Origin: Penicillus capitatus
Lineage: Eukaryota > Plantae > Chlorophyta
NCBI GenBank assembly: GCA_965649825.1
Contig: OZ287695.1
Location: 1,345,081 to 1,409,080 of the forward strand
Length of the DNA: 64,000 nucleotides
Reading direction: 5' to 3'
A program made the position numbers and the translations under genes. The notes below the pieces were generated by a model that was not told the DNA's origin, ran no database searches, and saw only the letters and a program-made list of their open reading frames with translations. Positions 35,060-64,000 of the stretch are shown piece by piece; within the stretch, counting starts at the first letter, position 1; each line of letters begins with the position of its first letter.

Positions 35060-35504
35060 TCACATACTCTTCTGTCTGAGCAACATGTCATTTGTCCATC
35101 TCTGTTTCAATTCCACCGCATTGTCAGAAAGGGTTAAGTACATATGTAAGGAACAGAAAATGCATCGCTAGGCGAAGAATTGAGATGTCTCAAACAAACT
35201 GCTAATGAATACTTGGTCGACGATGGACTGCCAGAGCTGTTGCATGAGAAGTCTTTTCTGATGGAGATAGACAATGATTTCCAACGACGCCTAACATGTA
35301 TATCTTTTTTCCGATGCATAAGAATGAGTCTTTAACTGAAGACCGATGATGCGACGTCGTCAAAGTGGCGATGGTCGTTCAGATCGAGTCAGAACATTAA
35401 ATATTGCTGCCAGATGTTTTGATCGCCTTTAAACAGCGGCATCACCTATCAACTGACGTACAGAGTACACACTAGAAAGTCACTGAGATGGAGGATGTGT
35501 TCGA

Positions 35505-38152: not shown

Positions 38153-38320
38153 CGTCGTCGACGCGGTGGTGCCCGTCCCGTCGTCGTCGACGCGGTGGTG
38201 CCCGTCCCGTCGTCGTCGACGCGGTGGTGCCCGTCCCGTCGTCGTCGACGCGGTGGTGCCCGTCCCGTCGTCGTCGACGCGGTGGTGCGCGTCCCGTCGT
38301 CGTCGACGCGGTGGTGCACA
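38153..38320. repeat. GC-rich 29-bp minisatellite (GTCGTCGACGCGGTGGTGCCCGTCCCGTC), ~6 copies
   Basis: ACGCGGTGG recurs at 38161, 38190, 38219, 38248, 38277, 38306. Confidence 0.97.
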
Positions 38321-38390
38321 CTAGTGGTTCTCGCGTCGTCTGTCTGTTGTTTACCCTTGCGTCGTCTGTTTTCGCGTTCGTTTGTCTAAC

Positions 38391-41470: not shown

Positions 41471-42101
41471 CTACTCTTGGAGGGGCTAGGAGTTTCCTGG
41501 CTTCTTCGCGAGCTTGTTTAACTGGTTCTGGAGTTTTCCTCCGATTGGGAGGGTCGTCCCATGGGCTGCGCCGTGCTCTGTCGCGGTTGGACTTCTTGCG
41601 TGTTGGTGGGATTGGGATGCGTTCTTCTGCTTATCTGGGTGGCGGTTGGGTCATGAGTGCAATTCTTAGACTTCCGATTAGTCCTTCTAGCATAAGAGCT
41701 GCGGCGTTAAGAGGGGTATCGACGTCACCGTCTTCTTTCGTCAGCGCAGCTTGCGCTTTTTCGACTTCCGTCGTGGCTTTGATGAGCCTTCGAAGAGCTA
41801 GATCGACCGGAGAGATGTCGCTGGTGAGCTCTAATTGTCGCTCGTTGACGCCAGTTGTCGTCGGTTGGGGTTCTTCGGTACCTTCTTTCCTGTGCGTCTC
41901 GCAGAAAGCTTGAAGTAGACGTCGTAGATCGTCTACCGTTGTCTTTTTTTTAAAGCCGTCGACGCCTAGCTTCTGGCACCAGGTACGGATGGATGCGAGC
42001 TTGCCATCTTTGATTTCGCGGTCCGTAGGCAACGAAACTGCCTCATGGCAGCGACGCGCCTTGGCGGTGGATGAGCTGGATCCGTTCGCCGGAGAGCTCA
42101 T
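41470..42101 (-). pseudogene. Transposon ORF1-like fragment (helical HeH/SAP-like N-terminus) with an internal stop at 41631
   Basis: 156-aa ORF from ATG 42101; same frame stays open past the TAA (AEERIPIPPTRKKSNRDRARRSPW..) until the RCC1 fragment; family assignment is inference. Confidence 0.4.
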
Positions 42102-42126
42102 TGTACAGCAAAAAGATCACACTAAT

Positions 42127-43090
42127 ACATGTATGTAGAGTTGCCTTCTCTGTCAAGCTCACGAGCACATGGGGCTGCTTTGGTGGTGAACATGTTCAAA
42201 TGGTGATATCCGTATGCTCTGAGCGGTCGAATGTGGTGGAGAAGCTCAACAACATGTATGTAGAGTTGCATCCTCCGTCAAGCTCACAAGCACATGGGGC
42301 TGCATTGGGCGTTGAACATGTTCAAATGGAGAAACCCGGCCCATGGCCTAAAAATAAAAGCGGTCCAATGTGGTGGAGAAGCTCAACGACAGAACGGGTA
42401 TGTAGCACATGGGGCTGCTTGGGTGGTGAACATGTTCAAATGGAGAAATCAGTATGCTCTGAGCGGTCCAATGTGAGTGGAGAATCACCCCAACATGTAT
42501 GTAGAGTTGCATCCTCCGTCAAGCTCACAAGCACATTGGGCTGCATTGGGTGGTGAACATGTTCAAATGGTGAAATCCGTATGCTCTGAGCGGTCGAATG
42601 TGGTGGAGAAGCTCAACAACATGTATGTAGAGTTGCCTTCTCCGTCAAGCTCACGAGCACATGGGGCTGCATTGGGTGCAAAACATGTTCAAATGGAGAA
42701 ATCCGTATGCTTATAGCGGTCGAATGTGGTGGAGAAGCTCAACAACATGTATGTAGAGTTGCCTTCTCCGTCAAGCTCACGAGCACATGGGGCTGCATTG
42801 GGTGCAAAACATGTTCAAATGGTGATATCCGTATGCTCTGAGCGGTCGAATGTGGTGGAGAAGCTCAACGACAGAACGGGTATGTAGCACATGGGGCTGC
42901 ATTGGGCGTTGAACATGTTCAAATGGTGATATACGTATGCTCTGAGCGGTCGAATGTGAGAAATCAGTATGCTGTGAGCGGTCTAATGTGAGAAATCAGT
43001 ATGCTGTGAGCGGTCTAATGTGAGTGGAGAATCTCACCAACCGGTATGTAGAGTAAGCCCTGAGCAGTCCAATGCGAGAAATCAGTACTG
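42127..43090. repeat. Tandem satellite array 2 (same family and orientation as array 1), ~7 units ending in 31-bp sub-repeats
   Basis: Same unit sequence; ends with GTGAGAAATCAGTATGCTGTGAGCGGTCTAAT repeats. Confidence 0.97.
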
Positions 43091-43225
43091 CGGCCTCGAA
43101 AAGGGGGGTAGCCTTGCTGCAACCCGGCCCACGGGCCTCAAAGGGGGGTAGGCTTGCTGCAACCCGGCCCACGGGCCTCAAGAGGGGGGGTAAGGCTTGC
43201 TGTAACCCGGCCCTCGGGCCTCCAA
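43091..43225. repeat. ~40-bp G-tract minisatellite, 3 copies
   Basis: GGCCTCAAAGGGGGGTAGGCTTGCTGCAACCCGGCCCACG-like unit repeated. Confidence 0.9.
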
Positions 43226-43271
43226 CAGCAGCAAGACATCGGGTAGGTAATCCATGACGGCCTCCAGGTTT

Positions 43272-43640
43272 CCAGCCTCCACCGAGATTGACAGAAAGTA
43301 TAGGCCGCCTCCAGCCTCCACCGAGATTGACAGAAAGTATAGGCCGCCTCCAGCCTCCACTGAGATTGACAGAAAGTATAGGCCGCCTCCAGCCTCCACT
43401 GAGATTGACAGAAAGTATAGGCCGCCTCCAGCCTCCACTGAGATTGACAGAAAGTATAGGCCGCCTCCAGCCTCCACTGAGATTGACAGACAGTATTACA
43501 GCTTCCAGCCTCCACTGAGTTTGACAGATAGACAGTATTACAGCTTCCAGCCTCCACTGAGTTTGACAGATAGACAGTATTACAGCTTCCAGCCTCCACT
43601 GAGTTTGACAGATAGACAGTATTGCAGCTTCCAGCCTCCA
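43272..43640. repeat. 39-bp then 42-bp minisatellite (CCAGCCTCCA core, 10 copies)
   Basis: Core starts at 43272, 43311, 43350, 43389, 43428, 43467, 43505, 43547, 43589, 43631. Confidence 0.95.
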
Positions 43641-43868
43641 AATAAACAACAGCTAACACAAGGCTAACCACAACAAAGCGGAGGTGGAATGGCAGTGAGA
43701 CACGACAAGAAAGAAAACAGCCCCCATTGGTCTTTTTTTTATTTTATTTTTTCTCACACTTAAAAAAGATGTGAGATTACAGACAGAGGAAAAAAGTTTT
43801 TGTTCTTTTACTGATTTTTGTTACCCCCCGAGAAAACAGCTTGCAGAAAAAACTCTAGAGATCGGCCC

Positions 43869-47861: not shown

Positions 47862-47982
47862 TGCCATTCAATGTAGATGTTCAGCTAGCAATGGATAACA
47901 GAACTGTACCTTACTGTAAAGATTGTTTTTGCTGCCATGCCGATTCCTGTCTTATGCATGACTGGTTCTTCTTATGACTGTT
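47862..47982 (+). repeat. Dispersed repeat; second copy at 63880-64000 (runs off the window)
   Basis: TGCCATTCAATGTAGATGTTCAGCTAGCAATGGATAA.. ~120 bp in direct orientation with a few substitutions. Confidence 0.9.
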
Positions 47983-50344: not shown

Positions 50345-51838
50345 ACTTACCGATTCACTCGGCTGTTGTCGGCACTTCTTTGACAAGTGCCGCTGGCCAC
50401 GCTCTCTCCTCCCTGACGCCCAACCATCCTCCCAAATGTCTTCGGCCGCCGCTGCAGGGGGGGGTGGTGTTGAGTGCCGGTATTGGGATGTGGCACATGA
50501 GACTCCGTTGCTTCACTGGTCTAACACCGCGCTTCTTCAGATCTGTTCAGCTTCTCCAGCTGTCTGCGTAACGAGTCAATGGACTGATCTGCAATGGACT
50601 CGGAAGTGTCGAAACACTTGGTCTGTCTGCTATGATCTGGTCCACCGGGGTTGGACATTCGATGTTCATGTCACTGATGTCTTCCGTGACGTCTTTTCTT
50701 GACATCGGTTCTTTCTGTGCTTTCTGTGCAGCATCCGAGCACTTCTGCTGAAGACAATCGGGATGACATGAATCTTCACGAGTTGGGAGCCTGCTGTCCA
50801 GCCGTGGATGAAGTCTGCAGAGTTACCATCCCGGAAGCAGTGGCATCTTGGAAGACATGTTTCTTCGCCAACTCTCCCAAACTGTCCTCGCAGTCATTCA
50901 GTCGTTTGATTCTCGGCTGCCATCCACAGAACTCATCTGCAACGATGACCACGTCGATTTCAGGCATCCACTCGTGCACTGCAATGACATACCTTCAAGA
51001 TTCAGATCATGCCATCCCAGATGGAAATTCATGTAAATCAATGCGCCTCTGAAGACGTGAAGAATGCTGACGTCTCGTATCGCGATGGCTGTTCTGGGAT
51101 AGTAGTGCATGCAGTTTCGAGTCGACGTTGACTGTTTCCAAGAGCTGGATTGCTGGAAAGACAGTCTGCAAACGTGCTTCAGTGTTTAGTTTGAGACTCC
51201 GATGCGTACTTTGTTGTCTCTAAGAAGCTGTCCGTCTTTTTTCTCTGAAGATCAGGTGTGGTCTGTCATCCCGATTTTACTTCCTTTGGCGTCGGGGACA
51301 GGTTCTTCTGGGTAACATCCAGTAGCACTTCGCTTCATGCGATATCAAAGAGTCGAAGTTGCGAGGCCATGTCGACGCGTGTCCATTTCAGCCAACAGTT
51401 CCTCGTTTGCACCTTGTTGAATCTAGCACAAGTGTTTCATTCTGTGAACACAGAGAAGGAACATACCTGAATTAAGATCAGGACAAAACAACAGAGGTCG
51501 ATTGCTTCTTCTGCAGTTGGAAAATGTAGATAGAGTGTTGCAGAACTGCCATGCCAGCGAAAAGAGTTTGAACGCTCAGCAGGCACAAGAATTCTCCAGC
51601 TTCGGATGTTGATTCCTGTCGACTGTCATTGCGTAAGCTTAAAAGAAAGACAAAATCCGTTCGTTTGCTTGCGCCCCTCCTTTAATACCTCCTGATCAGG
51701 AGGGGCGACTAATACGCCATTTGATCTGATGACTCAAATGGCATGATCAGTCATATTAGTGTTTCTGTAGGAGCCCACATACGCTTCGGCTGCAAACTTC
51801 GAAAGTAAACTAAAAAACAGCATTCTTCGCTTCGCACT

Positions 51839-54748
51839 TCAATCATAGTATTCTTTAATTCGGCTCGAGTGAACTGGATTCCTCACTGGTCCATGAACAC
51901 GCCATCTGCATCTTCCTACTCTCTCTGCTAACGTGTATGGACCTCTCCAGGCTGCAGGTTTGCCAGCTTCTGGGTAAAAGACCAGCACTCTTCTTCCAGT
52001 TCTTAAGGGTGGCGATGAGGCTGCGATTTTTTTGTGACTTCGCCTCGTAGTGGCTTCTCTTGATTTTCTGCAATTTTGGATCGCCTTTGCCCTCCATGTC
52101 TTCAGTCTCTCGTCGTCGATTCGTTCTCCATTTCGTGTCACTCCCCAGAAGAGCTCATTGGGCGTATATTTCGTCACGCCATGTATGGCATCATTGATTA
52201 CCTCCTCGAGGCGCTTGCCGTCGATCGGGAGTTCTTGGTTCGCGGTCATCTTTTCCACTCTTTTCTTGATGTTCCCGACAAGGCGCTCCACACGGCCATT
52301 AGTATGTGCCGTATAGGTGGGAGAATAGTAATGTGTGATCTGCCGCTCGGTGCAAAAGGCCCGCAATCGACGACCACAAAATGCTTGGCCTTGATCTGAA
52401 AATATAGCTTCTACGCCTCCATGTCTTGCCACTGTTGCATTCCACCATCTCGTGAGGGCCTTGATTACGGTTTCTTCGTTTGGTTGCGTCGTTATCGTCA
52501 ACTGGCAGAACCTGGTTAGTCCGTCGACGATTGCTAAGACGTGCTTGTTCTTCTTTTGATATCTTCCAAGCTTGATTGGTCCTAGGAAGTCGAGGAACAA
52601 CATGTGGTTTGCCACGGGGCATTCGATGCCTCTCCATTCGTCTCTAAGACGGGGTCTGGCTCCCCTTTGACAACCCTCGCATCTTCGCACGAACTCTTCA
52701 ACATCCGTTCGGGCCGATGGCCATATGCTTCCGTCCCTTTTAAGGTGCTCCCATGTTCGGCGGGAGTTCCAATGACCGTCGTGGGCTGTTCTCAGGCGTT
52801 CTGTCTGTTGCTCTGTGAGAAATGTCGTTGCTGCCTTTTCCAATGATGGCCATCGGCTTAAGACATCTGCCACCCCGTTGGATGCACCGGGAAGGTAGCA
52901 CACTTCAAGTCTGGAGGGGATCTCGAAGTTCGTCCAAAGCCAATCGAGCAGTCTGGACACCCTTGCGTCGAGGAGTGACCGGCTTCGTGGCGTTCCCATT
53001 ACGCATTGGTATGCACTTTGGGAATCTGTCCACACCACTATTCGCATCCCTGCTGTCATGACCTTCACTTGCTCGAGGGCCCAACAAAGCCCTCTCAGTT
53101 CTCCAAGCATGCTGCTCACAGCGCCGTTGGCTTCACGACGACTGTTGATTCCGATCAAAAGTCCTTCGCTCATCGGTCCTGAGAACAGAGCATATCCGGT
53201 TCCTACGCCGCTCCAGTCGACGTAGAGGTGCGATTCCTTCGTCGCATTGGTTGGTAGTCGATGCAGTGACATCGAGTTACGCAGCACAAGTTCCCATACC
53301 TCCCTTGTCTTCCTCTGCAGTGTGGCCAGATCTGATCGATCCTTTCTCGAGAGACTCAGTTCTTCTTGTAAGGGCTCCAGCCACTGGCTTAGTCTGTGAC
53401 ATGTGGGTCGACAGACGTTCAGTATTCCAATCATCTTCTGCAGTTGATGCTTCGACGTCGATATGGGCACTTGGGTGCATTGCTTGCGAATGTAGCTCTC
53501 GAGGCTGAACGTTGATTCTCGGACATCGTACCCCAGAAAAATCACTTGCTTTTCACAGAACTGCATCTTCTGTCGATTGGTGTGAAGGCAGTGGGCCTCC
53601 ATCACTCTTAATACTTCTTCCAGATTGCTGTCATGTTCCCCTTGATCGCGTCCGCCAATCAAGATGTCATCTTGATAGATGATTGCTTTGGTGGTCTCGA
53701 AGACCGAGCGCAGACGGCTAAGGAACAGCGAAGGGCTGCACGACCATCCCATCGGAAGGCATTTGTATGTCCACCTTTTCCCTTGGTGCTCGAATCCGAA
53801 TAGCTTCTGGAGAGCATCGCAAACCTGTAGGTGAAAAAACCCACAGTCTAAATCAAGGACAGTAAACCTATCCCATTCGGCTGGTATGGATGATACTGTC
53901 TCCTTTACACTCGTCATTTGTGTCTTCCAGGTTCGGCAGTAGGTATTCAAGAGCCGGAAGTCGAGGGTCTTGCGTGCTTTCCCGCTGGGCTTTCTGACCC
54001 ATATCGTGGGGCTCAGAAAGACCCTTTCACCAGGCTTCACTCTCCTGATAACCCCACGTGCCTCCATATCGGTGAGCACTTCGTTGGCTTCTTTGGTAGA
54101 GACGTCCCCCGTCTCGTATCGAGCGCCTCTGTTGCATCTTGGAATGTCCGCCACATCCTTCAGCCACTCGATCTCGTTGTGGCATATCTTCAATCGCGCG
54201 ATCGTCTTGCCCGCGCCGAAGATGCCTTTCGAGAACACCGCTGGGTATTTCTGCACCCAGTGATCCAGATCGGCTTTTTTCGTGTGGGCTGATGCTGAGA
54301 CGGGACTCGTCGCAGGACTCCCGTCTTCTTCGCGGGTCGCTTCCGGTTCGCTGATGTCGAATCGGCTCTCCGGTGTCTTGATGATTGCCGCTGCCTTGAG
54401 TTTCGGACTCAACAATTTGGCTTCGTCGGCAGAATTATAGATTTGGACTCTGACTGTTCCCTCATTGGACAGGGAAACAGAAGCTAGCAGGTTACGGACC
54501 TGTAGCACTGGCAGCACGCCTTGGATCCCGTCTCCTACCACGTTGAACGGTAGAACCAGGATCTTTGTCTCCTTAGGGCCCATCACGGTGGACCTTCCGA
54601 GGGGCAAGTGAGCACGGTTGCCCACGACTGCGACACGCGCCGCCTTGTTTCTTTGGCCGAGGATGGAGATCTCCACCGTAGGGTGAGCGGCGGATCTCCC
54701 CTGGATTCTTGGCTCTGGGGCAGAGGTCCCCAGATCTAGAAGTTTTTT
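51839..54748 (-). CDS. Element A pol (RT, RNase H, integrase), entered by -1 frameshift
   Basis: LDFRLLN, LDLDCGFF, LPMGWSCSP, YQDD; YVDWSG, ELRG, TDSQ; HHCC zinc finger, LDFLGP, SDQG, NGRVER, GPY. Confidence 0.97.
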   Translation of the reverse strand, partial: KKLLDLGTSAPEPRIQGRSAAHPTVEISILGQRNKAARVAVVGNRAHLPLGRSTVMGPKETKILVLPFNVVGDGIQGVLPVLQVRNLLASVSLSNEGTVRVQIYNSADEAKLLSPKLKAAAIIKTPESRFDISEPEATREEDGSPATSPVSASAHTKKADLDHWVQKYPAVFSKGIFGAGKTIARLKICHNEIEWLKDVADIPRCNRGARYETGDVSTKEANEVLTDMEARGVIRRVKPGERVFLSPTIWVRKPSGKARKTLDFRLLNTYCRTWKTQMTSVKETVSSIPAEWDRFTVLDLDCGFFHLQVCDALQKLFGFEHQGKRWTYKCLPMGWSCSPSLFLSRLRSVFETTKAIIYQDDILIGGRDQGEHDSNLEEVLRVMEAHCLHTNRQKMQFCEKQVIFLGYDVRESTFSLESYIRKQCTQVPISTSKHQLQKMIGILNVCRPTCHRLSQWLEPLQEELSLSRKDRSDLATLQRKTREVWELVLRNSMSLHRLPTNATKESHLYVDWSGVGTGYALFSGPMSEGLLIGINSRREANGAVSSMLGELRGLCWALEQVKVMTAGMRIVVWTDSQSAYQCVMGTPRSRSLLDARVSRLLDWLWTNFEIPSRLEVCYLPGASNGVADVLSRWPSLEKAATTFLTEQQTERLRTAHDGHWNSRRTWEHLKRDGSIWPSARTDVEEFVRRCEGCQRGARPRLRDEWRGIECPVANHMLFLDFLGPIKLGRYQKKNKHVLAIVDGLTRFCQLTITTQPNEETVIKALTRWWNATVARHGGVEAIFSDQGQAFCGRRLRAFCTERQITHYYSPTYTAHTNGRVERLVGNIKKRVEKMTANQELPIDGKRLEEVINDAIHGVTKYTPNELFWGVTRNGERIDDERLKTWRAKAIQNCRKSREATTRRSHKKIAASSPPLRTGRRVLVFYPEAGKPAAWRGPYTLAERVGRCRWRVHGPVRNPVHSSRIKEYYD
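54714..54748 (-). promoter_or_regulatory. -1 programmed ribosomal frameshift signal of element A
   Basis: Slippery A-AAA-AAC (54742-54748) in ORF1 frame, 7-nt spacer, perfect 7-bp stem TCTGGGG/CCCCAGA (54714-54734); ORF2 is in the -1 frame. Confidence 0.85.
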
Positions 54749-56274
54749 TGCAGCTGAGCTTTGGAGGCTGCATGGCAGAAGAGTCTCTCTCCGCATGGTC
54801 TCTGTAGGTATTCCTCGCTGCAGTTGATGCTGAACTCGAACTGACGTAACGCCGGAGTTCCCAATATCGTTTTCCCCAGTTGGGGAACAACCAAGTACGT
54901 CACACTCTTCTCTGAGTTCCCGAGGTGAGTGTTCAGGGTAGTCTGCCCAAGAACGGGTAGACCCTCGCCTGAGACTCCGTAAACCTCCGTTACGTCGCAA
55001 GGCACCGCTGAATGTCCGATCTCTTCACAGATCGTCCTGGAGATCAAGTTGGCGGACGACCCGGAGTCAATGAGAAACTCCCGGGCCCGAGGCTCGTTTT
55101 CGATCCGCCCTTGCACGTGGAGGAGAGGTCTCCCGTTGTCCCTTTCCGTTCCACTGACTGCCGCCGTTGTCGGCTGATGAGAGCACCCTTCATCTGTCTG
55201 AACTTCGCCTCCTCTGGGAGAGGACCGGCCACTTCTGAAACTGAACTCATCGTCAATGTCCGATCCCATACAGGTGGACGCTGCATAAGCTCTGTCTTTT
55301 CGCTGTTTGGGGCACTCATCTTTCCAGTGCATCCCACGGCATACAGGACACGGAGCGCTGGGCTTGCTAGGCCTGGCAGGGCAGGCCCAAATCGGATGAT
55401 CGTCTCCCCCACACCGTTTGCATCGCTTCCCTCTCGGAGTTCCTCCGTCCTTTCTCGGAAAAGCAGAGGGTCCGGGAGAATCGGACGAGCGTCGGCGAGC
55501 ATGCGTGTCGGGTTTGTCGACCCTGGAGCCTCGTTTTTCGTCCGAGGCCCGCCTTAACTCCCTCAGGGCATTCTTTACCTCCCTGAGTTCTTGTCTGAGG
55601 TCGTCGTCATTGCCTTCTGGCTCGCTTTCCCACTGCAGTCGTCGAAGGAGTTGGATAAACTTTTGGATGGCTATTCCCAAAACCACCCAGATTGGCAGAT
55701 GGAAATACCACTTTACCACAGCCCTGCATCCTTTCCACATGACCGTCGCCTTGAGCCACATCAGGCAGAGCACGTTTGTGACGATGAATGCCACGCAGAG
55801 CCAGAAGATCGTCCACATGTTGCGGAGCGACGTGCCTGTGACCGTCGCCGCCGCTGCGATGAAGTCGACGATTGAGTTTCGGATCCGATGGAAGGTTGAC
55901 CGCCACATCCCGCTTTCGTCCGCGGCGGTTTCCGGCGCAGTCGGCGCATCCTCAGCCTTGGAGTGATCGCTGGCCGAGAACCATGTCTTCCAGAACTTCC
56001 ATCGGCCCCCCGTCGTGGACTCGGCCGTTTCTTCGTGACATGGACAGCATGCAGCCAGACGTTTGCGCAGTCTAATCGACTCTCCTAACAGCTGGTCTTT
56101 GTCTTCCCGTAACTCCGCGTTCTCTCGTCGCAAGAGCTTGATGGTCCGCATTATATCCGCCATGTTCTGCCCGGCAGTCATCTCCAAGCCTTCGTTGGAC
56201 GTATCGTCGTTTGTCGCTGCCTCCGCTTGGATACCTCCATCGCAATAAAGGAGGATTGCCACCAACACAGCCAT
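54736..56274 (-). CDS. Element A ORF1: signal peptide, coiled coil, hydrophobic membrane segments, two zinc knuckles, aspartic protease
   Basis: MAVLVAILLYCDGGIQA; WTIFWLCVAFIVTNVLCLMWL; CKRCGGDDHPIWAC and CPVCRGMHWKDEC; FLIDSGSS; an in-frame ATG also at 56316 inside the LTR end. Confidence 0.9.
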   Translation of the reverse strand: MAVLVAILLYCDGGIQAEAATNDDTSNEGLEMTAGQNMADIMRTIKLLRRENAELREDKDQLLGESIRLRKRLAACCPCHEETAESTTGGRWKFWKTWFSASDHSKAEDAPTAPETAADESGMWRSTFHRIRNSIVDFIAAAATVTGTSLRNMWTIFWLCVAFIVTNVLCLMWLKATVMWKGCRAVVKWYFHLPIWVVLGIAIQKFIQLLRRLQWESEPEGNDDDLRQELREVKNALRELRRASDEKRGSRVDKPDTHARRRSSDSPGPSAFPRKDGGTPRGKRCKRCGGDDHPIWACPARPSKPSAPCPVCRGMHWKDECPKQRKDRAYAASTCMGSDIDDEFSFRSGRSSPRGGEVQTDEGCSHQPTTAAVSGTERDNGRPLLHVQGRIENEPRAREFLIDSGSSANLISRTICEEIGHSAVPCDVTEVYGVSGEGLPVLGQTTLNTHLGNSEKSVTYLVVPQLGKTILGTPALRQFEFSINCSEEYLQRPCGERLFCHAASKAQLQKNF

Positions 56275-56296
56275 GACCGTCCGGTCGGTCTCCTTC

Positions 56297-56308
56297 GCTC
56301 CGAAACCA
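56297..56308 (-). promoter_or_regulatory. Primer-binding site of element A (TGGTTTCGGAGC)
   Basis: 2 nt inside the 5' LTR; begins with TGG complementary to tRNA CCA. Confidence 0.85.
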
Positions 56309-57791
56309 GATGTCATTGCGTAAGCTTAAAAGAAAGACAAAATCCGTTCGTTTGCTTGCGCCCCTCCTTTAATACCTCCTGATCAGGAGGGGCGACTAAT
56401 ACGCCATTTGATCTGATGACTCAAATGGCATGATCAGTCATATTAGTGTTTCTGTAGGAGCCCACATCGACCACGCCCTTGTCTGTGTGAGCAGCAGCGG
56501 TCTTTGACGAAACCATGCTTGTACTCAATGTTTGCTGGATGCCTCGTCCTTCATCATCGGATTCGTAAGTGTAATTGTACTGAGCTGAGGACTGGCCCGC
56601 CATCTAGAATTCAAACTCCATCTTGATTGGTGTGTAGCATTGGATTTCTTACCGTTGCGAACGAGATATGGGAATTCACCCAAGTGATTCAAGTGCCAAT
56701 CTCCTTCTGAAATTCGAATCGATTCGCTAGATGCTTATCCTCGTGGAACAGACTCCGTTTGCGGCACAGCTGGTTCCTTGTCGGAGCGGAAATCCAGTCA
56801 ACCAGAACCTGGTCGTTTGATCTGCATCAATGCGAGCTGGTCTTCGAGGACGAGTCACAACGTGTTTGTTGGAATTATCTCGTCATTGAGCTTTCGACAA
56901 CAGTCCAGCTGGTCCGGCTTCTACCGTCACTGTCGCCAGCGAGTGAAACCTTCTTTAAAGAAGGACTGATTGGCGCCAGAGAGAAAGTGTCGATGCACTC
57001 GGAATCTTCGTTCTGCGATGGAGGACTGACTCTGTCTTCGAACGATCGAGATTGAAATCGGCTTTCATCTCACTCGAGCCATCCTCCCATCGCCTCTGAC
57101 GGAATGAGGCAGCGAAAGCAGTTGTCGATAGCAAACCACTGTGAACAGCTGATCGACTGAGCACTCACCGAGGGCTGTTGTTGCCTAGACAAAACGCTTA
57201 CTTAGCATCTAAGCCATTGACCTCCCATGTAGAACGTGCTTGCATAGAAGATCATCGTCTTCTGCCTTTTCTGCGTGGATACTCCATCGAGGATGGTTCC
57301 ACTGGTCTCGTGGTCGGGCGGAGGAGGTCTGTTGTCCACTGCATCGTGTCTGGGAGACTTCGAGATCTTAAGCCAGACGAACCGAGTTATGGAGTCCGTT
57401 GGCAGGCGATTCCCTGTGCCGTGAAGTTTTCGATGGCTCCTGCTGGTCACCTGCAGAGACGCCTTTGTATGATAAACGATATGTAAAACGCTCACCAGTC
57501 CGCAGATCTTCAGGGTTTAATTGTTCTCTCGCAGTCTCCGAAAACTGCAACGCCTTTTATCTTGTTATCCGCTAGTGGACTTCTGAGATTCAGTTCTCCG
57601 TCTATAGCCTTTAAGCTCCGAATAGAGACCCAGCGGTGAGATGTTGCAACCTTTGTCTTGCTGTTGTCATGAATGAGGAATTAGGGGGCGTCAAACCCGA
57701 AGCGTCACTTGATGTACTTAACAGTGGTGCCTGTGTCATGTACGTGATTAGTGTGATCTTTTCTGTAACAATTCTGATCGTAAAAGCGACA

Positions 57792-57803
57792 TGGTTTCGG
57801 AGC
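57792..57803 (+). promoter_or_regulatory. Primer-binding site of element B (TGGTTTCGGAGC)
   Basis: Immediately after the 5' LTR; identical 12-mer to the PBS of element A. Confidence 0.85.
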
Positions 57804-57808
57804 CGAAG

Positions 57809-59359
57809 ATGTACGCCAGATGGACGCCAGAGGCCGAACGCTGGCTGATTCCATATTTGGAAGCGACTGAGGATGTAGGACATGATCGTCTCAGGCGACT
57901 TCTTAAGCATGTCGATAATCGCACGTCGGGAGGACATGCCGTCGTCGATATCGTTGCACGTTATCAGACTAAGGGACGGGATGCTATTCTCGCCGATTAT
58001 GCAGACGCCGCAGCTCGGAATGAAGCTGCTAACGTCATCGGACTTAACAACCTGCGCTGGCATCGCATCAAACAGGCTTTGCGAACACTGCATCCGCAAG
58101 AAAATGCCATGGCGCCCGAGACGCAACTATTGACGATGAAGCGACACCCCAAGAACGAAAACCTTCTCGAGTTCGTGATGCGTTATCGACGCTCTGCCGA
58201 TCAGTTCATAACGCAAGGAATGGTGACGAAAGAAAGGTGTTTGCAGATCCTCTTTCAAAAACTGCCGGATGCGTTACAAACCATGATGTCTATCATTCCG
58301 TTCAATACAGCAACCTTGGATACAGTGGAGGACATCGTCCGCAGTAAACTTGACTGGATGGCAATTACGAAACCAGGGGTGTATGTCACGAAAGAACTCG
58401 GCGACTATATGGAAGTGGATGCGGTCGAGCTTCACGCGGCACAGAGTGTCGACGAAGAATGTCACAACATGCGCGAGAAGATCATCTCAGGGTCGGATAT
58501 TCGTTTCGACGCCATCACGAATGCGAACGGCGTTATGATCGCGTGGAAGAAGCTCATGGATCAACCTCGATTCTACCGCGAGGCGGAGCGATTTATGGCT
58601 GCTAGACGAAAGAAATCGCAGACTGGGCAGCGGCCACGTTATATGGCAGTTGCAGAGGATACTTCTGAGGTCGACGAGGATGATTTTACATTCGATGCGG
58701 AAGTCCCCTCAAGAGAACCTCATCGGGACGACACGGCAGGCGATCACGATCGTCTATGCATGATCGATGGAGGATTGGAAGATAAACGTGTCGAGTCGCC
58801 TTTGGTCTGTTCGAGTGTTTACCCTAAGTCGAAGCCTAGTTTGCATCTCGGAGTGGAGCTGAACGGAAAACGAGTTAACGCCTTGATCGACACAGGTGCG
58901 ACCAATTGCTTTGTACAGCTAAGGACACTCGAAGCATTGGGGCTGGAAAAGGACGTGAAATCATGCCAGCGAAGTGTCACTCTCGGCAACGGGACATCTA
59001 CACCTCTTGCGGGAAGGGTAAGCCTGAAAGCAATCGTCGAAGGGGAGGCGTATCCTATCGACGCATTTGTACTCGCCGGCAAAGGGCCAGCTCTCATTCT
59101 GGGCTATCGATTCCTTGAAGAGAACAACCTGATCATCGATTGTCGCGCTAGAAGGCTGTTGAGAGCTCATCAGGCACCGTTGCAGTGCCACCATGGCGAG
59201 CTTGTAAAGAAGCAGCCCGACGAGCGATTAGACAGTGGTCGGAAGGAGATGCAGGATTTGATGACCGAAATACGAGCGCTCACGGTTCAGATCTCCGCCC
59301 TGATAAGTCTGTTGCAAAAAAACGAACAAGCGTCATTGTTGGCTCCAGCTCAACAGTGA
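57809..59359 (+). CDS. Element B ORF1: capsid-like Gag + aspartic protease, no CCHC knuckle seen
   Basis: Helical Gag with MHR-like NENLLEFVMRYRR..ILFQKLP; protease ALIDTGAT..ILGYRFL; an in-frame ATG also at 57791. Confidence 0.88.
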   Translation: MYARWTPEAERWLIPYLEATEDVGHDRLRRLLKHVDNRTSGGHAVVDIVARYQTKGRDAILADYADAAARNEAANVIGLNNLRWHRIKQALRTLHPQENAMAPETQLLTMKRHPKNENLLEFVMRYRRSADQFITQGMVTKERCLQILFQKLPDALQTMMSIIPFNTATLDTVEDIVRSKLDWMAITKPGVYVTKELGDYMEVDAVELHAAQSVDEECHNMREKIISGSDIRFDAITNANGVMIAWKKLMDQPRFYREAERFMAARRKKSQTGQRPRYMAVAEDTSEVDEDDFTFDAEVPSREPHRDDTAGDHDRLCMIDGGLEDKRVESPLVCSSVYPKSKPSLHLGVELNGKRVNALIDTGATNCFVQLRTLEALGLEKDVKSCQRSVTLGNGTSTPLAGRVSLKAIVEGEAYPIDAFVLAGKGPALILGYRFLEENNLIIDCRARRLLRAHQAPLQCHHGELVKKQPDERLDSGRKEMQDLMTEIRALTVQISALISLLQKNEQASLLAPAQQ

Positions 59360-59363
59360 ACGC
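59317..59363 (+). promoter_or_regulatory. -1 programmed ribosomal frameshift signal of element B
   Basis: Slippery A-AAA-AAC (59317-59323), 6-nt spacer, stem GCGTCATTGTTG / CAACAGTGAACGC (59330-59363); ORF2 is in the -1 frame. Confidence 0.85.
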
Positions 59364-62109
59364 TATCCACATGCTGGAAAAGCCACTGTATCTACCATAT
59401 CGGAAGAACGGACGTATCGTAATCCCTTTCAATCGTTCATGTGTGCTTGGACCAGGAGAGAAGCGAAAATTGATTCTGTCACTCTTCTTTCCTCCGGGGA
59501 CGTTGTTGACGGTGGAAGATGGCATCACGGCATCCCAGATGCGATTCTCTCCTCAGACCAATGGGACGCGGGTGTGGGGTATATTGGAGAATTGCAGTTC
59601 TGTGCCTAGGCATATTACCCACCGGATGGTCTTGTGTCTCGTACGCTCGACAGCGACTCACTTGAAAGTCATCGACAAGGGACTGTTGCCGATCGAGGAA
59701 CGGCAAAGACCGGTAGCTTTGAACACAGTGTCGTCATCTGTCGTGCAAGATCTGATCTTAAGTTTCCCAGAACTATGCAAGCCAGGTTTGGGACGATGCA
59801 AAACATACGAGGTGAAGTCCATTCCTTTCAAGTGTCCATTGCCCCGTCAGCAAAAACCATATCAGTCAGCGACAGCACCTCGGGAACAATCTCTGCTGGT
59901 GAAAGAGATCGAGAAGTTGGTCGCATTGGGGGCAGTAACTGAGGTGACAAGCGAGCCTTTTCTGATACCAGTGTTTGCTATTCCTAAGAAGACGGGAGAT
60001 GTCAGACTAGTGTTGGACTTCCGTAAGTTCAATTCCTGCGTAGAGCAACAACCATTCCTTCCAGTTAATCGTGAGCACACGATGGCAACAATTCGACCTT
60101 ATGTGGTGGGATCAGCACTGGACTTATCCAATGCCTATTTTCAGGTGGCCTTGCATCCCTCATTACATCCATACTTCGGGGTCAATGTGTCTGGTCGGTT
60201 CTTTCAGTATAGTCGATTGCCTTTCGGGTATCACAACAGCCCGGCAGAGTTTTTGCGAGCACTTCGTCCTACACTACAGCGCATCCGTCGACGGATTTCC
60301 TCACAGCTATTGGATTACATGGATGATCTCCTTCTTCTGTCACCATCGGAAGAGCAACATAAGTCGGATCTTCGAGTAATGTTCCAGATACTCCAAGAGG
60401 ATGGATGGAGATTGCGACCAGACAAGTGTGTCTTCATGGAGCAAAACTTTCCTTTTTTAGGACATATCGTCACTCCCAATGGCTGGCGGCCGTCACCTGC
60501 GTCGATCGATCGTCTGCAAGCCATTCCGTGTCCATCAACCCGTTCTGGATGGCGTTCCGTGAGAGGGTGGTTTCAGCAGATCGTCAGGTTTCTCTACCGC
60601 GGGGACAATGTCCATGAGGCGCTGCGGAAGGCAGAAGAGACTGGTGCATCTGAAGATTGGCGCCAGTTCGTCCGTGGTCTCGAGACGCATATGATCAGGA
60701 TTATGCATCCACTCGGCGATGATGAGTTCGGCGTTGCAGTAGATGCCAGTGGATCTGGATGGGGAGCGTGTTTGACACAAGGACGAGATATTATCTGCTG
60801 CACATCCGGACTTTGGTCGAAGCGCTACAGCCATCACATGTCAAATAATCTCGAGCTCGAAGCAGTTGTGCGGGCACTGAAACGATTCAGACCTTGGTTG
60901 TTTGCTGCAAAGGTCACTCTGTTTACGGATAATTCGTCGGTGCAGAGTCTGGCCAATTCATCGAATCACAGTGATTTCATCAAGCGACGTCTGGACAAGA
61001 TACTCGACATCTGCCCGAGGGTTCGGTTTCTTCCTGGGAAGACGAACATTCTTCCTGATTTCCTGTCCCGGCAAGCGGAGCTTTTGAAGGCGGAGAAAGG
61101 GGGACAAGCTGCTGTTCTGGCCTCTTCTACAGAGGACGTCTTGCGTGAGGCCCACGCTGCCCATTATGGAACCGAAAAAACGTACCTGCTTGCACGGCAA
61201 ATGGATCCCAGTGTGGACAGACGTCAGGTAGAGGAGTACGTTCGGAAATGTCAATCCTGTCAACAGTTCAAGCGGAAAGCACCATCGGTTCCACTCGGTC
61301 ACCTGCCGGATGCAGAAAAAGTTGGTGAGTTTCTATCCATGGACTTTATCGGTCCTCTTCAAGCTGCTCCATCGGGTGTTCGCTACATTTTTACGTTGGT
61401 CGATTCCTTGTCCCGGCTAGGATTTGCGATGCCATGCACGAAGCCCACGATGGAAAACGCAAAGAAGGGCATCGCCCAGTGGATGGAGGGTCATGGGCAA
61501 CCGAGTCGGATTCTCTCGGATCGAGGAGCCGCGTTTCAGTCAGCCAGATTTCGACAATGGGCTGCTGACAAGGACATCGAGATTGTCCTAACTGCGCCAA
61601 ACGCGCACCATAGCAATGGGTTGTGCGAGAGGTTCCAACAGACCTTGATAAACCGACTTCGGAGGATGATGGTGGATGGACCAAAGAGGCGTTGCTGGAA
61701 AGCGGTTCTTCCAGAGGCGATTCGGCGAATGAATGAGACCCCCCATGGCGTCACTGGGTTCTGTCCGACATATCTGTATTCTGGGACAAACAGGGATGGC
61801 AGCCAAGCATCGCCAGATAGGTTGAACGATGACAGAAAAACGGCCATCAAACGAATGACGGCTCAGAGACAGCAAATGGAGAAGCAAGGACGTAGAGGCA
61901 TTCCGTTCATACCTTCTGTAGGGCAGTTGGTCTGGGTGTACGACTCTGTTCGCATGGCACGGCTCGATGACAAGTTCTCCCCATTTTGGAAAGGACCGTT
62001 TAGAGTAGTCGAAGCTCTCTCAGGACATATCTTCTGGGTGCAGCACGCGCATTCTGGTCAACGGCTGGTTGTTCATGTGGACAACCTTCAGCCGTATTAT
62101 GGCCAATGA
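59317..62109 (+). CDS. Element B pol (RT, RNase H, integrase), entered by -1 frameshift
   Basis: VLDFRKFN, LDLSNAYFQ, LPFGYHNSP, YMDD; VDASGSGWG, ELEAV, TDN; HHCC, MDFIGP, SDRG, NGLCER, GPF. Confidence 0.97.
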   Translation, partial: KKRTSVIVGSSSTVNAIHMLEKPLYLPYRKNGRIVIPFNRSCVLGPGEKRKLILSLFFPPGTLLTVEDGITASQMRFSPQTNGTRVWGILENCSSVPRHITHRMVLCLVRSTATHLKVIDKGLLPIEERQRPVALNTVSSSVVQDLILSFPELCKPGLGRCKTYEVKSIPFKCPLPRQQKPYQSATAPREQSLLVKEIEKLVALGAVTEVTSEPFLIPVFAIPKKTGDVRLVLDFRKFNSCVEQQPFLPVNREHTMATIRPYVVGSALDLSNAYFQVALHPSLHPYFGVNVSGRFFQYSRLPFGYHNSPAEFLRALRPTLQRIRRRISSQLLDYMDDLLLLSPSEEQHKSDLRVMFQILQEDGWRLRPDKCVFMEQNFPFLGHIVTPNGWRPSPASIDRLQAIPCPSTRSGWRSVRGWFQQIVRFLYRGDNVHEALRKAEETGASEDWRQFVRGLETHMIRIMHPLGDDEFGVAVDASGSGWGACLTQGRDIICCTSGLWSKRYSHHMSNNLELEAVVRALKRFRPWLFAAKVTLFTDNSSVQSLANSSNHSDFIKRRLDKILDICPRVRFLPGKTNILPDFLSRQAELLKAEKGGQAAVLASSTEDVLREAHAAHYGTEKTYLLARQMDPSVDRRQVEEYVRKCQSCQQFKRKAPSVPLGHLPDAEKVGEFLSMDFIGPLQAAPSGVRYIFTLVDSLSRLGFAMPCTKPTMENAKKGIAQWMEGHGQPSRILSDRGAAFQSARFRQWAADKDIEIVLTAPNAHHSNGLCERFQQTLINRLRRMMVDGPKRRCWKAVLPEAIRRMNETPHGVTGFCPTYLYSGTNRDGSQASPDRLNDDRKTAIKRMTAQRQQMEKQGRRGIPFIPSVGQLVWVYDSVRMARLDDKFSPFWKGPFRVVEALSGHIFWVQHAHSGQRLVVHVDNLQPYYGQ

Positions 62110-64000
62110 TCTTGTTCAGAGCGTTGACACAGGGCCACACTTGAGTCAGGAGAGATTTGGAGGGTATTGATGCCTTCGTTGAGCTCATTCGAATGAAGAG
62201 GCTGGAAAACGCGAAGTCCCCTTGCAAAAGTCTTGGTGGTACATCTCCACAGGTCTTCGGAGTCTATTGCGCAGGAAAGCGTGTCATGAATGAGGAATTA
62301 GGGGGCGTCAAACCCGAAGCGTCACTTGATGTACTTAACAGTGGTGCCTGTGTCATGTACGTGATTAGTGTGATCTTTTCTGTAACAATTCTGATCGTAA
62401 AAGCGACACTGTAGCACGTTGCCACGATTTAACAACTCGTTTTCCTGCCGGTGAGTCCTGCAAACAAACAGGATTGGTTTTCTCTTGCATGAGCTCAGCC
62501 TCAGCCTATTTCACACCTGTTTCTCAACCGAAAAGCCGAATGAGACACCTTCATCTGCATGCGTGACCACCGTCACTGTCCGAATCATCCTTGTCCTGTG
62601 CCAAGGTTTGCAGCGAATGCATTCGTCTCCCTGACATCCAATTCTGTCCAAAGGATTCCCCCAGTTGGTAAGATCGAATCGGACCGAACACCTCTTCTCC
62701 GACACCGGCCGATTCTGTGACATGTACGTTCGACAAGTGTTCAGAAGAGGGTGGACAGACCTGGAATCGATACACTTCTTTATTGCCGTACCCAGCCAGA
62801 GGTCTCTTGATCGCTGGAGTAGTTCAAAGCCGAAGACAGAATCTAATCTGTTCTATGTTCCTGTCTCGGTCCACGTAGGTCGGTTGACATCCATTGGCTG
62901 CTTCATCATCCAACGACGAGATCATCCAAGAGACAAGGATCCGATCTCGGAATCAACGAAGCTTGGATTGGGCATTGCCTTTCATGAACCGTTTCCTCGT
63001 CCTGCCCATCGAGACATCAACGCGCTCACAGTGCTAAATGGTATCGAATTGAGAACTTACGTCAAGGATGTCCATTGACACCGCAGCCAACACCGTTGAT
63101 GACCTCGTCTTCGCGGAGTGGATGGGACATGATCTTCGACGAAGAATCCTCACTGGAGAAACCTTCCAACTCCGAGAGATAATTCGATGCTTCTTCAGGC
63201 AGATGATCGCTGCTTCTTTGTTCCAAGTTACGTTTCTTCAAAGCAATAAAGATCGACCTTGCCAAAACAGTAGCACTATGCAGCTTACCAGGAAAGTCTA
63301 GACGACGAAGGACTGCACCAGATGTCGGATGCTGAATGATTGATCATGTGTCGTCACTGTTCAAGGCCCCTTCGATCATGAACCTTCGAGTTTCGGGACC
63401 ATCTCCAATGTCAATGTCCGTGTCCAGAGCAGACTTCGCATCTGATTTCCACAGAGGACCAGGAGAACGGATGATGAGACATGCTTGGTCGGGCAGCTTC
63501 CTCTTCACAGGGATGATTTCCCAGTCGACAGTCTTCTCCAAAAACAGCGACTTCCTTCGTCAAATCAGGCTGGAAAGTGTGACTGGGGTACTGAAATCCG
63601 GCACTGGAAGAAACATCAGCGGAGGCGCTTCAGATTGAAGTGCCAACGGATATTGCAGTGCCGTCATGCAGGAAGTGTGTCATACTCCGTTCGACAGTCC
63701 TTTGTGACACTCCTGCCAGCCAACTGCCTCTTGACCAGATTCCACCGGCTGTAAGCGTCATGTTCAGTCTCCTCGGGTACCTTGTACTCTGTCGAACGAT
63801 GTCGATGATTCGCTGATCTCCCTTCTTCTGAAATCGCCTCTCTAAGGCTGATTGACTATCCAGATGTCTTCGTACGATCTGCCATTCAATGTAGATGTTC
63901 AGCTAGCAATGGATAATAGAACTGTACCTTACTGTAATGATTGTTTTTGCTGCCATGCGGATTCCTATCTTATGCATGACTGGTCCTTCTCATGACTGTC

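Follow-up and report, generated by a model that had tools for sequence, protein, structure and literature searches.

A recently inserted LTR retrotransposon of Penicillus capitatus with a predicted membrane-anchored Gag and no detectable capsid domain

In the genome of Penicillus capitatus (contig OZ287695.1; the window analysed is the whole stretch of 64,000 nucleotides from position 1,345,081 to 1,409,080), we identified a Ty3/Gypsy-like LTR retrotransposon, here termed element A, that inserted recently and whose reading frames are intact. As judged from its sequence, the Gag of element A lacks any detectable capsid domain, and its predicted topology is that of a single-pass (type I) membrane protein with a cytosolic C-terminus. 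Dozens of distant relatives share this design, and it is therefore likely that these elements copy their RNA within a membrane pocket and not within the protein shell regarded as universal in this group.

Structure and recent insertion of element A

Element A occupies positions 51624-56466 of the window (4843 bp) on the minus strand, on which all of its features described below are located. As stated in the sequence-only reading, its LTRs (5', 56311..56466; 3', 51624..51779; 156 bp, TG...CA) are 100% identical, it is flanked on both sides by a 5-bp target-site duplication (TCGAC, 56467..56471, with its partner at 51619-51623), and its frames are uninterrupted, with ORF1 open from 56316 to 54736 and Pol open from 55024 to 51839. 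The recent transposition proposed there was also corroborated. A contig of run X1 joins 51623 to 56477, demonstrating that an empty site of element A exists, and an identical ORF1 was found on a second contig (P0008, which could be a haplotig). It is on these two observations that the term "young" is based, LTR identity over 156 bp by itself giving loose dating only. In addition, a whole element of ~90% identity was present on a single contig in run X6.

The primer-binding site (PBS; TGGTTTCGGAGC, 56297..56308), a 12-mer starting with TGG, lies 2 nt past the LTR, reads GFGA within ORF1, and is identical over its 12 nt in the neighbouring element B; we take it to resemble the iMet-tRNA PBS motif. 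In the 14 nt ahead of the 3' LTR, the region of the polypurine tract contains 9 purines and is interrupted, compared with the Metaviridae standard of ~10 A/G. A slippery heptamer (A_AAA_AAC, 54742..54748) immediately ahead of the ORF1 stop is predicted to direct a -1 frameshift into Pol, and is followed 7 nt 3' by a hairpin (z -2.3), the loop of which might form a pseudoknot by pairing further 3'. Pol (51839..54741 within the open frame 55024-51839) comprises a beta-rich N-terminal domain, reverse transcriptase (RT, with YQDD), RNase H (RH) and integrase (IN, with HHCC and D,D,E), giving the PR-RT-RH-IN order of Metaviridae. The best PDB match of Pol was Ty3 Gag-Pol (E 1.4e-19), with foamy virus RT close to it (1.3e-17). 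The beta-rich domain is possibly a dUTPase remnant, with scores of just 8.6 and 1.1 bits against two dUTPase-like relatives.

A predicted single-pass membrane Gag

ORF1 (54736..56316) encodes 526 aa of membrane Gag and protease from an ATG within the final six bases of the 5' LTR. Of the features named in the sequence-only reading, an N-terminal hydrophobic segment, two coiled coils, a W-rich segment, two knuckles and a C-terminal protease were recovered. For the signal peptide, the hydrophobic segment was upheld and its start was moved: P0002 and P0003 carry Ile in place of the Met at aa 15, from which it had been read, but Met1, at the end of the LTR, is conserved. A simple heuristic predicts a cleavable signal peptide at aa 1-31/33 (56218..56316), with an h-region at aa 13-23 and a small-x-Ala site followed by acidic residues. 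Downstream of it are coiled coil 1 (aa 49-90, 56047..56172), predicted to be lumenal and leucine-zipper-like by eye, with Leu at d and Asn/Lys/Ser at a, and then a W-rich helix (aa 104-115), a variable linker and a membrane-proximal amphipathic helix (aa 135-168), together at 55813..56007. The single predicted transmembrane (TM) helix (aa 170-188, 55753..55809) carries a family-conserved Asn181, and is followed by basic amphipathic helices on the predicted cytosolic side (55630..55752), kinked at the conserved Pro208, 27 residues past Asn181. Coiled coil 2 (aa 237-263, 55528..55608) occupies the position of the capsid CTD in sister families. The nucleocapsid (NC; 55312..55422), with two CCHC knuckles (aa 299-312 and 323-335), has profile matches to retroviral and Ty3 NC, and the aspartic protease (PR; 54766..55131) has a DSG motif and matches PF13650 (E 4.9e-4). 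Pfam matches of ORF1 to MRVI1 (E 0.022) and ZapB (E 0.047) were taken as generic TM and coiled-coil hits.

Two hydrophobic membrane stretches had been proposed for ORF1. By hydropathy heuristics, on which the topology is based, aa 170-188 (KD 2.37, zero charged residues) was the sole one of the two to behave as a TM helix. The other (aa ~199-229) has an amphipathic character: it reaches KD>=1.6 in only 9 of 28 family rows, contains one or more charged residues in 26 of 28, and has a KD of 0.94 in the 63%-identical sister subfamily. Two membrane spans were rejected on this basis. With a single span, NC and Pol would stay cytosolic; the unsupported layout, with two spans after a signal peptide, would place NC, protease and Pol in the lumen.

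The predicted topology is conserved across the family, as assessed in a 28-row alignment (rows picked by eye, with 4 of 32 dropped as near-duplicates or fragments; distant rows at 12-26% identity). The main TM had KD>=1.6 in 27 of 28 rows, with Lys/Arg richer on its C side in 23 and on its N side in 2. A transmembrane Asn was found in 25 rows and the Pro in 26, with a spacing of exactly 27 in 25 of the 28. Moreover, an upstream h-region was present in 25/33, followed by a small-x-Ala site in 17/25, compared with 3/25 after the main TM. The conserved layout consists of a signal peptide, a coiled coil, one TM helix with Asn, amphipathic helices, a second coiled coil, zinc knuckles and a protease. 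Between subfamilies, identity was 90% in the TM, 83% in NC, 76% in coiled coil 1, 73% in PR and 16% in the linker. The membrane module is under purifying selection (pN/pS 0.34-0.35); for aa 129-263 against the X6 copy, 11 synonymous and 13 non-synonymous changes were counted (ratio 0.35, p 0.01).

Search for a capsid domain

The earlier suggestion that ORF1 has little room for a usual capsid was supported by a lineage-specific capsid-CTD profile, which recovered 12 of 14 capsid-bearing relatives at >=20 bits in leave-one-out (the Caulerpa protein P0040 being among those that failed). Element B scored 39-41 bits with it; none of 39 A-type proteins scored above 2.5 bits, ORF1 of element A scored -3.6 bits, and a scan of all six frames of element A was empty, excluding a CTD of this kind encoded in another frame. 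The profile is lineage-tuned and misses distant ordinary Gags, with a best score of 11 bits among 12 held-out proteins and 2.2 bits for P0079, a Ty3_capsid protein by Pfam. Pfam itself detected no capsid in element A, which does not count as evidence because none was detected in element B either. When the family profile was compared with the PDB, Gag polyproteins were matched only through NC and PR; searching the PDB with capsid-bearing relatives gave mostly RT matches and thus no capsid control.

Structure prediction and fold searches, as proposed in the sequence-only reading, listed no capsid or fusogen of note. The model of aa 1-350 consisted of long helices (42, 25, 45, 22 and 27 aa) without a compact bundle, at a pTM of 0.27, and cannot by itself exclude a fold. 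Between the last amphipathic helix (ending at aa 229) and the first knuckle (aa 299), it contained one 27-residue helix and a low-confidence linker. Searches with this low-pTM model exclude no family: Foldseek against the PDB returned 3 rows (E 4-10), BFVD returned 244 rows at E<=10 with none below 0.001 (the best aligning 74 columns, probably the knuckles, to a deltaretrovirus Gag fragment), and a VIA fold search gave generic coiled coils over aa 127-234 (best Z 6.3). By comparison, in the sister-family protein P0029, used as a positive control, a CTD folded at pLDDT >90 right past a similar membrane segment. All of its top 10 Foldseek rows were capsids (Arc, BLV, HTLV, PEG10, PNMA2 and Copia; E 0.07-0.98, none <0.001), and residues ~103-192 of its model matched the Copia/PEG10/Arc CTD (Z 7.4-7.6, rmsd 3.2-3.7, 69-87 aligned).

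Relatives and phylogeny

The search for homologues with the same layout, suggested earlier, identified two subfamilies, all full-length members of which carry the layout of element A, and 28 distant clusters. Among 45 relatives (of 147 matches, those with >=300 aa before the protease), 28 had a TM without a CTD, 8 a TM and a CTD, 4 a CTD without a TM and 5 neither; these counts are biased toward TM proteins because the search profile included the TM region, and for the 12 rows with a CTD, the CTD scores are in-training. The sister families keep a lone CTD downstream of a membrane helix. The membrane-module profile gave no score on the TM+CTD families or on long TM forms, so their anchors are homologous to that of element A by layout and by eye only.

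Caulerpa lentillifera was the sole taxonomically meaningful named source of relatives. In an RT-RH tree of 12 rows (P0098, P0019 and P0058 dropped; a Closterium chromodomain element as the sole named reference lineage), element A grouped at a support of 100/97 with two Caulerpa elements, of which one has TM+CTD and the other a TM but no CTD. In the protease tree, the capsid-less forms are not one clade: their monophyly was rejected with p-AU 8.6e-6 in a quick, unrooted tree of 22 versus 11 rows and ~125 columns (P0024 dropped). The distribution of the CTD is patchy between closely related proteins (e.g., P0078 versus P0165/P0201), a pattern in which the order of losses is unrooted and which recombination could also produce. 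Beyond these proteins, the related-locus scan yielded 1 distant locus among 436 metagenome candidates and none among 59 viral-contig candidates, a word-indexed search with the family alignment found 6 proteins only, and ESM Atlas returned no usable match for P0001 1-330 or P0045 20-285.

Proposed mechanism and alternative explanations

Regarding the earlier suggestion of a capsid-less, membrane-tethered Gag, no capsid is detectable and a membrane protein is predicted; tethering or enclosure, and hence a membrane compartment in place of the capsid, is what we infer. In the specific form that we give about an even chance, the single-pass Gag assembles on the ER or nuclear-envelope membrane and wraps RNA and Pol in a pocket doing the capsid's job. 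The signal peptide, beginning at the PBS, would bring the ribosome, and with it the genomic RNA being translated, to the ER; coiled coil 1 would enter the lumen, aa 170-188 would span the membrane and everything downstream would remain cytosolic, with the -1 frameshift past the protease yielding a minority of membrane-anchored Gag-PR-Pol. Copies would oligomerise via coiled coil 1 in the lumen and the Asn of the TM helix, amphipathic helices at either face of the membrane would bend it, and the knuckles would collect RNA and primer tRNA into a bud or necked spherule. Crowding in the bud might activate the protease and release NC, RT and IN, after which the cDNA-integrase complex could exit via the neck or by back-fusion and integrate with a 5-bp duplication.

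On a wider scale, we lean slightly towards the view that an autonomous LTR lineage seen in siphonous green algae (e.g., Caulerpa) swapped the retroviral-type capsid, the hallmark of Ortervirales, for a self-assembling membrane protein whose single chain serves as envelope, scaffold, nucleocapsid and protease. The loss would be recorded in living intermediates (anchor with full capsid, anchor with CTD only, anchor only), and pockets budding into the lumen of the ER or the perinuclear space could ferry the element among the many nuclei of a giant cell, or from cell to cell. Capsid loss was likely a stepwise process that occurred more than once, leading from anchor plus full capsid through anchor plus CTD only to anchor plus coiled coil.

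Less probably, the type I ORF1 protein would only concentrate RNA, NC and Pol at the cytosolic face of the ER, still without a capsid and with nothing enclosed, and reverse transcription would take place in an open RNP cluster held by coiled coil 2 and NC, perhaps after protease release. This shares the topology and capsid absence of the pocket model, and Ty1 is described, in the available part of PMC3945221, as nucleating assembly sites through SRP and the ER. However, it leaves unexplained the conserved lumenal coiled coil (76%), the transmembrane Asn and the fixed-spacing amphipathic helices, and RNA and cDNA left in the open would be vulnerable to nucleases and silencing.

Rather unlikely is a dependence on helpers, in which particles of capsid-bearing families (P0029-type TM+CTD, or element B-type Gag) package A-type Gag-Pol and RNA, for example by mixing via the membrane module. 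Element B, a capsid-bearing element whose PBS and frameshift layout are the same, is situated 1.2 kb from element A, and CTD-bearing families, including a TM+CTD family of 18 members, apparently share the assembly of element A, so that help in trans is possible; the patchiness of the CTD among close relatives also fits. Nevertheless, element A retains intact PR, RT, RH, IN and NC, capsid-less clusters outnumber TM+CTD clusters (28 versus 8, in a biased sample), and a lone CTD without an NTD would not form a canonical shell either.

An enveloped, transmissible particle appears improbable. Here the lumenal part would be a spike or fusogen, making Gag and Env one protein, and vesicles, after leaving the cell or traversing the perinuclear space, would fuse with a target membrane. 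The type I layout, with a coiled coil, a W-rich segment and a membrane-proximal helix, loosely resembles viral TM proteins, a C-x4-CC-like motif occurs in 18 of 32 aligned rows (it is absent from element A), the motif ahead of the TM anchor in class I fusogens and retroviral Env being CX6CC, and fusogen-like small proteins move env-less MDG1 elements between cells, according to the available part of bioRxiv 10.1101/2025.03.14.642691. The fusogen-like Gag raised in the sequence-only reading nevertheless gained no positive evidence: searches of Pfam and the PDB yielded no fusogen sequence match, an internal fusion peptide is not evident, the sole hydrophobic segment at the N-terminus resembles a signal peptide that is cleaved off, and the heptads of coiled coil 1 look dimeric by eye, not trimeric.

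Finally, it is very improbable, and largely refuted, that aa 90-300 conceal a highly diverged capsid or that this copy is non-autonomous, a chimera that captured a membrane gene of the host: capsids diverge fast, Pfam is blank on element B too and the CTD profile misses distant Gags, but the lineage profile finds the capsid of element B and none in element A, aa 229-299 holds just one helix and a linker, and a chimera is excluded by the layout shared within both subfamilies, the 28 distant clusters and the whole element in run X6.

Comparison with known systems

In Metaviridae, gag encodes capsid and nucleocapsid, replication proceeds in capsid-built VLPs and env lies past integrase (PMC7879559). 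Element A resembles them in its LTRs, PBS, NC knuckles and PR-RT-RH-IN order, but differs in having no detectable capsid, a membrane domain as the N-terminal part of Gag, PR in ORF1 ahead of the frameshift and a weak polypurine tract. A Gag form with a transmembrane segment is known in MLV glycoGag, which retains MA-CA-NC and which the available part of PMC12530543 describes as an accessory, CUG-initiated, N-terminally extended type II protein with its Gag part outside, made beside normal Gag. In contrast, the membrane form of element A is its only Gag (no second gag frame was found in the 4843-bp element), is predicted to be type I with NC-PR-Pol cytosolic, and is without a detectable capsid. 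As proposed for element A, Ty1 targets its RNA co-translationally to the ER through Gag; unlike that of element A, the Gag of Ty1 contains a capsid and goes back to the cytosol to build VLPs, and it is not described as an integral membrane protein in the available part of PMC3945221.

Other LTR elements encode small or unusual membrane proteins with amphipathic or coiled-coil parts, including the MDG1-group sORF2/FAST-like proteins (bioRxiv 10.1101/2025.03.14.642691), the small TM protein ORF3 of bdelloid Vesta4 (PMC5408684) and Tor Env (PMC4402516). In the available parts of these sources, all three are separate genes beside gag, none being fused to NC-PR-Pol or replacing a capsid, and the capsid of 412 is shown by antibody (bioRxiv 10.1101/2025.03.14.642691). 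A literature search, with Repbase and most subscription journals outside its scope, found no description of the architecture of element A, and the available main text of the REXdb paper (PMC6317226) does not mention its terms.

The capsid protein is the structural feature that retroviruses share with metaviruses, pseudoviruses and caulimoviruses, and the particle is regarded as the site of reverse transcription (PMC7879559; PMC8515867). If the proposal is true, an active LTR element without a capsid would mean that the capsid is dispensable where a membrane does the same job, and the graded series among living relatives would illustrate how a capsid can be lost. Being intact and <5 kb, element A is suited to a standard transposition assay, and it could serve to package RNA and enzymes into membranes with one protein. 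Brome mosaic virus 1a is a self-assembling peripheral membrane protein that builds the replication spherules of a positive-strand RNA virus. Such spherules belong to RdRp viruses and no homology is claimed, but they do the same job as that proposed for element A. With an active capsid-less LTR element, the old parallel between retroviral capsids and membrane replication compartments would become directly testable.

Structure of element A and its neighbour

Element A, a Ty3/Gypsy-like LTR retrotransposon, occupies 51624-56466 on the minus strand and is bounded by identical LTRs of 156 bp, each with TG at its start and CA at its end. TCGAC was found on both flanks, and a contig of run X1 carried an empty-site allele connecting 51623 directly with 56477, indicating that these 5 bp are a true target duplication. 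ORF1 (56316 to 54736, minus strand; 526 aa) starts at an ATG within the final six LTR bases and ends in an aspartic protease, while the RT, RNase H, and integrase, with intact catalytic motifs, are encoded in a second frame. The identical LTRs, target duplication, and uninterrupted ORFs described in the sequence-only reading were confirmed. A 12-mer resembling a primer-binding site (PBS) lies just past the 5' LTR, and the polypurine tract is weak.

The ORF1 and Pol frames overlap, with A_AAA_AAC just ahead of the ORF1 end and a hairpin 7 nt past it (z -2.3; 2 of 200 shuffles equally stable), and a -1 frameshift is predicted after the protease. At 56297-56316, ORF1 begins within the LTR end and translation runs through the PBS, as is common among relatives (GFGA or MVSE near the N-terminus), and almost no post-PBS leader is therefore left for a packaging signal. 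In A (about 54300-54700, minus strand), in element B (about 59400-59700, plus strand), and in relatives, a beta-rich domain opens Pol between the frameshift and the RT; it may be a dUTPase remnant, for which the profile test was weak.

Element B (57665-62408, plus strand), a second intact LTR retrotransposon, served as a control for A. Its LTRs (127 bp) are identical and flanked by the 4-bp repeat CTGT, and it shares the PBS and the Gag-PR / A_AAA_AAC / Pol layout of A. A host gene matching plant chloroplast carotene epsilon-monooxygenase (E 3.7e-68) points to a green alga as the likely host. Elsewhere, the window harbors mixed tandem arrays at 35500-38350 and 42050-43650 (units of about 126, 104, 32, 29, 39, and 42 bp) and a 120-bp repeat at 47862-47981 and 63880-63999 (95% identical, 16 kb spacing).

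Search for a capsid

Pfam detected no capsid in A and none in B either, so its silence on A is empty as a test. A profile of the capsid C-terminal domain (CTD), built from an alignment of 14 relatives with a capsid-like segment, regained 12 of the 14 at 20-55 bits in leave-one-out trials, and it is lineage-tuned, since distant ordinary Gags score at most 11 bits. None of the 39 A-type proteins exceeded 2.5 bits. When trained without B, the profile scored the soluble, CTD-bearing Gag of B at 39 bits and found nothing across the six frames of A; by these sequence tests no capsid is detectable, in line with the absence proposed earlier. Moreover, the family profile matched the HIV, RSV, Ty3, and Copia Gag chains over the nucleocapsid (NC) or protease only.

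AlphaFold2 modeling of aa 1-350 with 32 sequences gave long helices at 49-90, 135-159, 161-205, 208-229, and 237-263, with a pTM of 0.27 and low confidence at 265-295. The same pipeline applied to the sister family P0029 as a control yielded a compact domain (pLDDT >90) directly past the membrane segment. Retroelement capsids filled its best 10 Foldseek rows, none below E 0.001, and residues of about 103-192 matched the Copia, PEG10, and Arc CTDs with Z of 7.4-7.6 (VIA). In A, this position is taken by a coiled coil of 27 residues together with a basic linker.

Anatomy of the membrane module

For the module alignment, 32 rows were chosen by eye and 4 near-duplicates or fragments were removed. 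The order in the remaining 28 rows was constant: a hydrophobic N-terminus leads into a coiled coil, a W-rich segment, in many cases C-x4-CC, an amphipathic helix, and the transmembrane (TM) segment, beyond which come an amphipathic helix, Pro, a second amphipathic helix, a coiled coil, knuckles, and protease. The TM segment reached a hydropathy (KD) of at least 1.6 in 27 of 28 rows with a low hydrophobic moment (median 0.15) and contained Asn in 25. Pro occurred past it in 26 of 28, at a spacing of exactly 27 residues in 25, and a Lys/Arg excess lay on the post-TM side in 23 rows and on the pre-TM side in 2. The hydrophobic moment was 0.44 and 0.39 in the two post-TM helices, and even the most hydrophobic second window attained KD 1.6 in just 9 of 28 rows. 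Being amphipathic and rarely that hydrophobic, this second window suggests one span rather than two; of the two TM stretches first proposed, the former stands but the latter does not.

An h-region was present upstream of the TM segment in 25 of 33 proteins, with a small-x-Ala site after it in 17 of 25 and after the main TM in 3 of 25; the 8 proteins without one may be gene calls from a later Met. In several families, the h-region immediately follows the translated PBS (GFGA or MVSE). A signal peptide and one span, predicted from hydropathy heuristics rather than SignalP or DeepTMHMM, point to a type I topology with the coiled coil lumenal and NC-PR-Pol cytosolic, which is the sole arrangement compatible with RNA binding and a frameshifted Pol.

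Conservation, distribution, and proposed capsid loss

Close homologues fell into two subfamilies, one with identities of 91-100% and the other of about 60-63%, and the ORF1 layout was the same in every full-length member of both. Together with a wider set of clusters, these provide the same-layout relatives that the sequence-only reading had called for. Identity between the subfamilies was 90% in the TM helix, 83% in NC, 80% in the W-rich region, 76% in the first coiled coil, 73% in the protease, and 16-35% in linkers. A 4591-bp contig of run X6 (organism C) matched the whole of element A at about 90% identity, and over aa 129-263 the changes against that copy numbered 11 at synonymous and 13 at non-synonymous sites (ratio 0.35, p 0.01).

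A profile of the full ORF1, searched without an index, retrieved 149 clusters (E<=0.001), 147 of them new, a census skewed toward TM proteins as the query included the TM. Lys-Asn, the translated slip site, stood at the end or at most 2 residues from it in 51 of the 147. Among the 45 clusters with at least 300 residues ahead of the protease, 28 had a strongly hydrophobic segment but lacked a CTD by the lineage profile, 8 had both, 4 had a CTD alone, and 5 had neither, 3 of which look like ordinary Gags overlooked by that profile. Four of 20 clusters checked (P0040, P0165, P0098, and P0057) contained Caulerpa lentillifera gene models; Caulerpa and Bryopsis are described as coenocytic Bryopsidales (bioRxiv 10.1101/2023.11.22.568388), and the host may belong to this group as well. 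One of the 20 had a member filed under a bacterial MAG; the contig in question spans 3.4 kb and is likely eukaryotic sequence that strayed into the bin. In the Caulerpa model P0098, a patatin-like N-terminal region, recognised by eye, precedes an A-type membrane Gag-protease; this is probably a gene-model fusion but may instead reflect capture or domestication.

The clusters form a graded series, from a membrane anchor followed by space for a full capsid (P0129, P0054, P0114, P0144, P0090, and P0124; N-terminal domain by eye), through a signal peptide, coiled coil, anchor, and lone CTD (P0029 and the Caulerpa cluster P0201), to no CTD in A and 27-28 other clusters. The membrane-module profile gave no score on TM+CTD or long TM forms, so homology of the anchor is by layout only. 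In the unrooted protease tree, calculated for 60 rows over 129 columns, P0029 and P0165 were placed amid capsid-less rows although both bear a CTD, P0165 as sister to the capsid-less P0078 (support 98/88), and forcing 22 capsid-less rows together was rejected (p-AU 8.6e-6; quick tree, subset picked after the first tree). The unrooted RT-RH tree (12 rows) united A, P0016, and two Caulerpa elements (100/97), with B and the anchor-plus-full-capsid P0090 and P0124 outside. Repeated capsid loss is the simplest reading of these trees; recombination or regain may instead lie behind the patchy CTD.

Possible mechanisms

Membrane-enclosed replication is put forward as the best mechanism for A, with our confidence evenly balanced. 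The protein would enter the ER with its own RNA in tow, oligomerise via the coiled coil in the lumen and the Asn of the TM helix, and curve the membrane through its amphipathic helices; RNA, primer, and Pol would then end up inside a bud or spherule, and enzyme maturation by the protease would take place there. An open tether to the membrane, which would draw on the same predicted anchor, is unlikely. Help from capsid-bearing families is doubtful and less probable again; B is a possible helper as well as a natural control. An enveloped fusogenic particle is quite improbable for A. The enclosed, tethered, and fusogenic readings are all capsid-less in cis. Six long forms (P0035, P0051, P0057, P0076, P0081, and P0082) have 900-1100 aa ahead of Pol and no CTD, with a far larger predicted lumenal coiled-coil region, a small CPPG/CPWG-like Cys motif, and a long Pro/Arg-rich linker on the cytosolic side, and are stronger candidates for acting as a spike or binding a receptor than A is. 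A hidden capsid or a chimeric copy is highly improbable, set beside the empty six-frame search and the layout shared throughout the family.

Comparison with known systems

No published account of this architecture was found among titles and the starts of abstracts, Repbase and subscription journals lying outside the search. In Metaviridae, gag comprises capsid and nucleocapsid, replication takes place in VLPs, and env follows integrase (PMC7879559). Element A is alike in enzymes and termini, but the sequence tests found it without the capsid feature, and the label given to it is therefore Ty3/Gypsy-like, short of tested membership. MLV glycoGag (PMC12530543), the Ty1 ER route (PMC3945221), sORF2 (bioRxiv 10.1101/2025.03.14.642691), and the envelope-like genes of bdelloid Vesta4 (PMC5408684) and Tor (PMC4402516) each have one trait in common with A; in the available portions of these sources, capsid replacement is not part of the descriptions of glycoGag and Ty1, nor are sORF2 and the envelope-like genes described as capsid substitutes. 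Element A is a real and conserved variant, apparently undescribed, that lacks a defining feature of its order.
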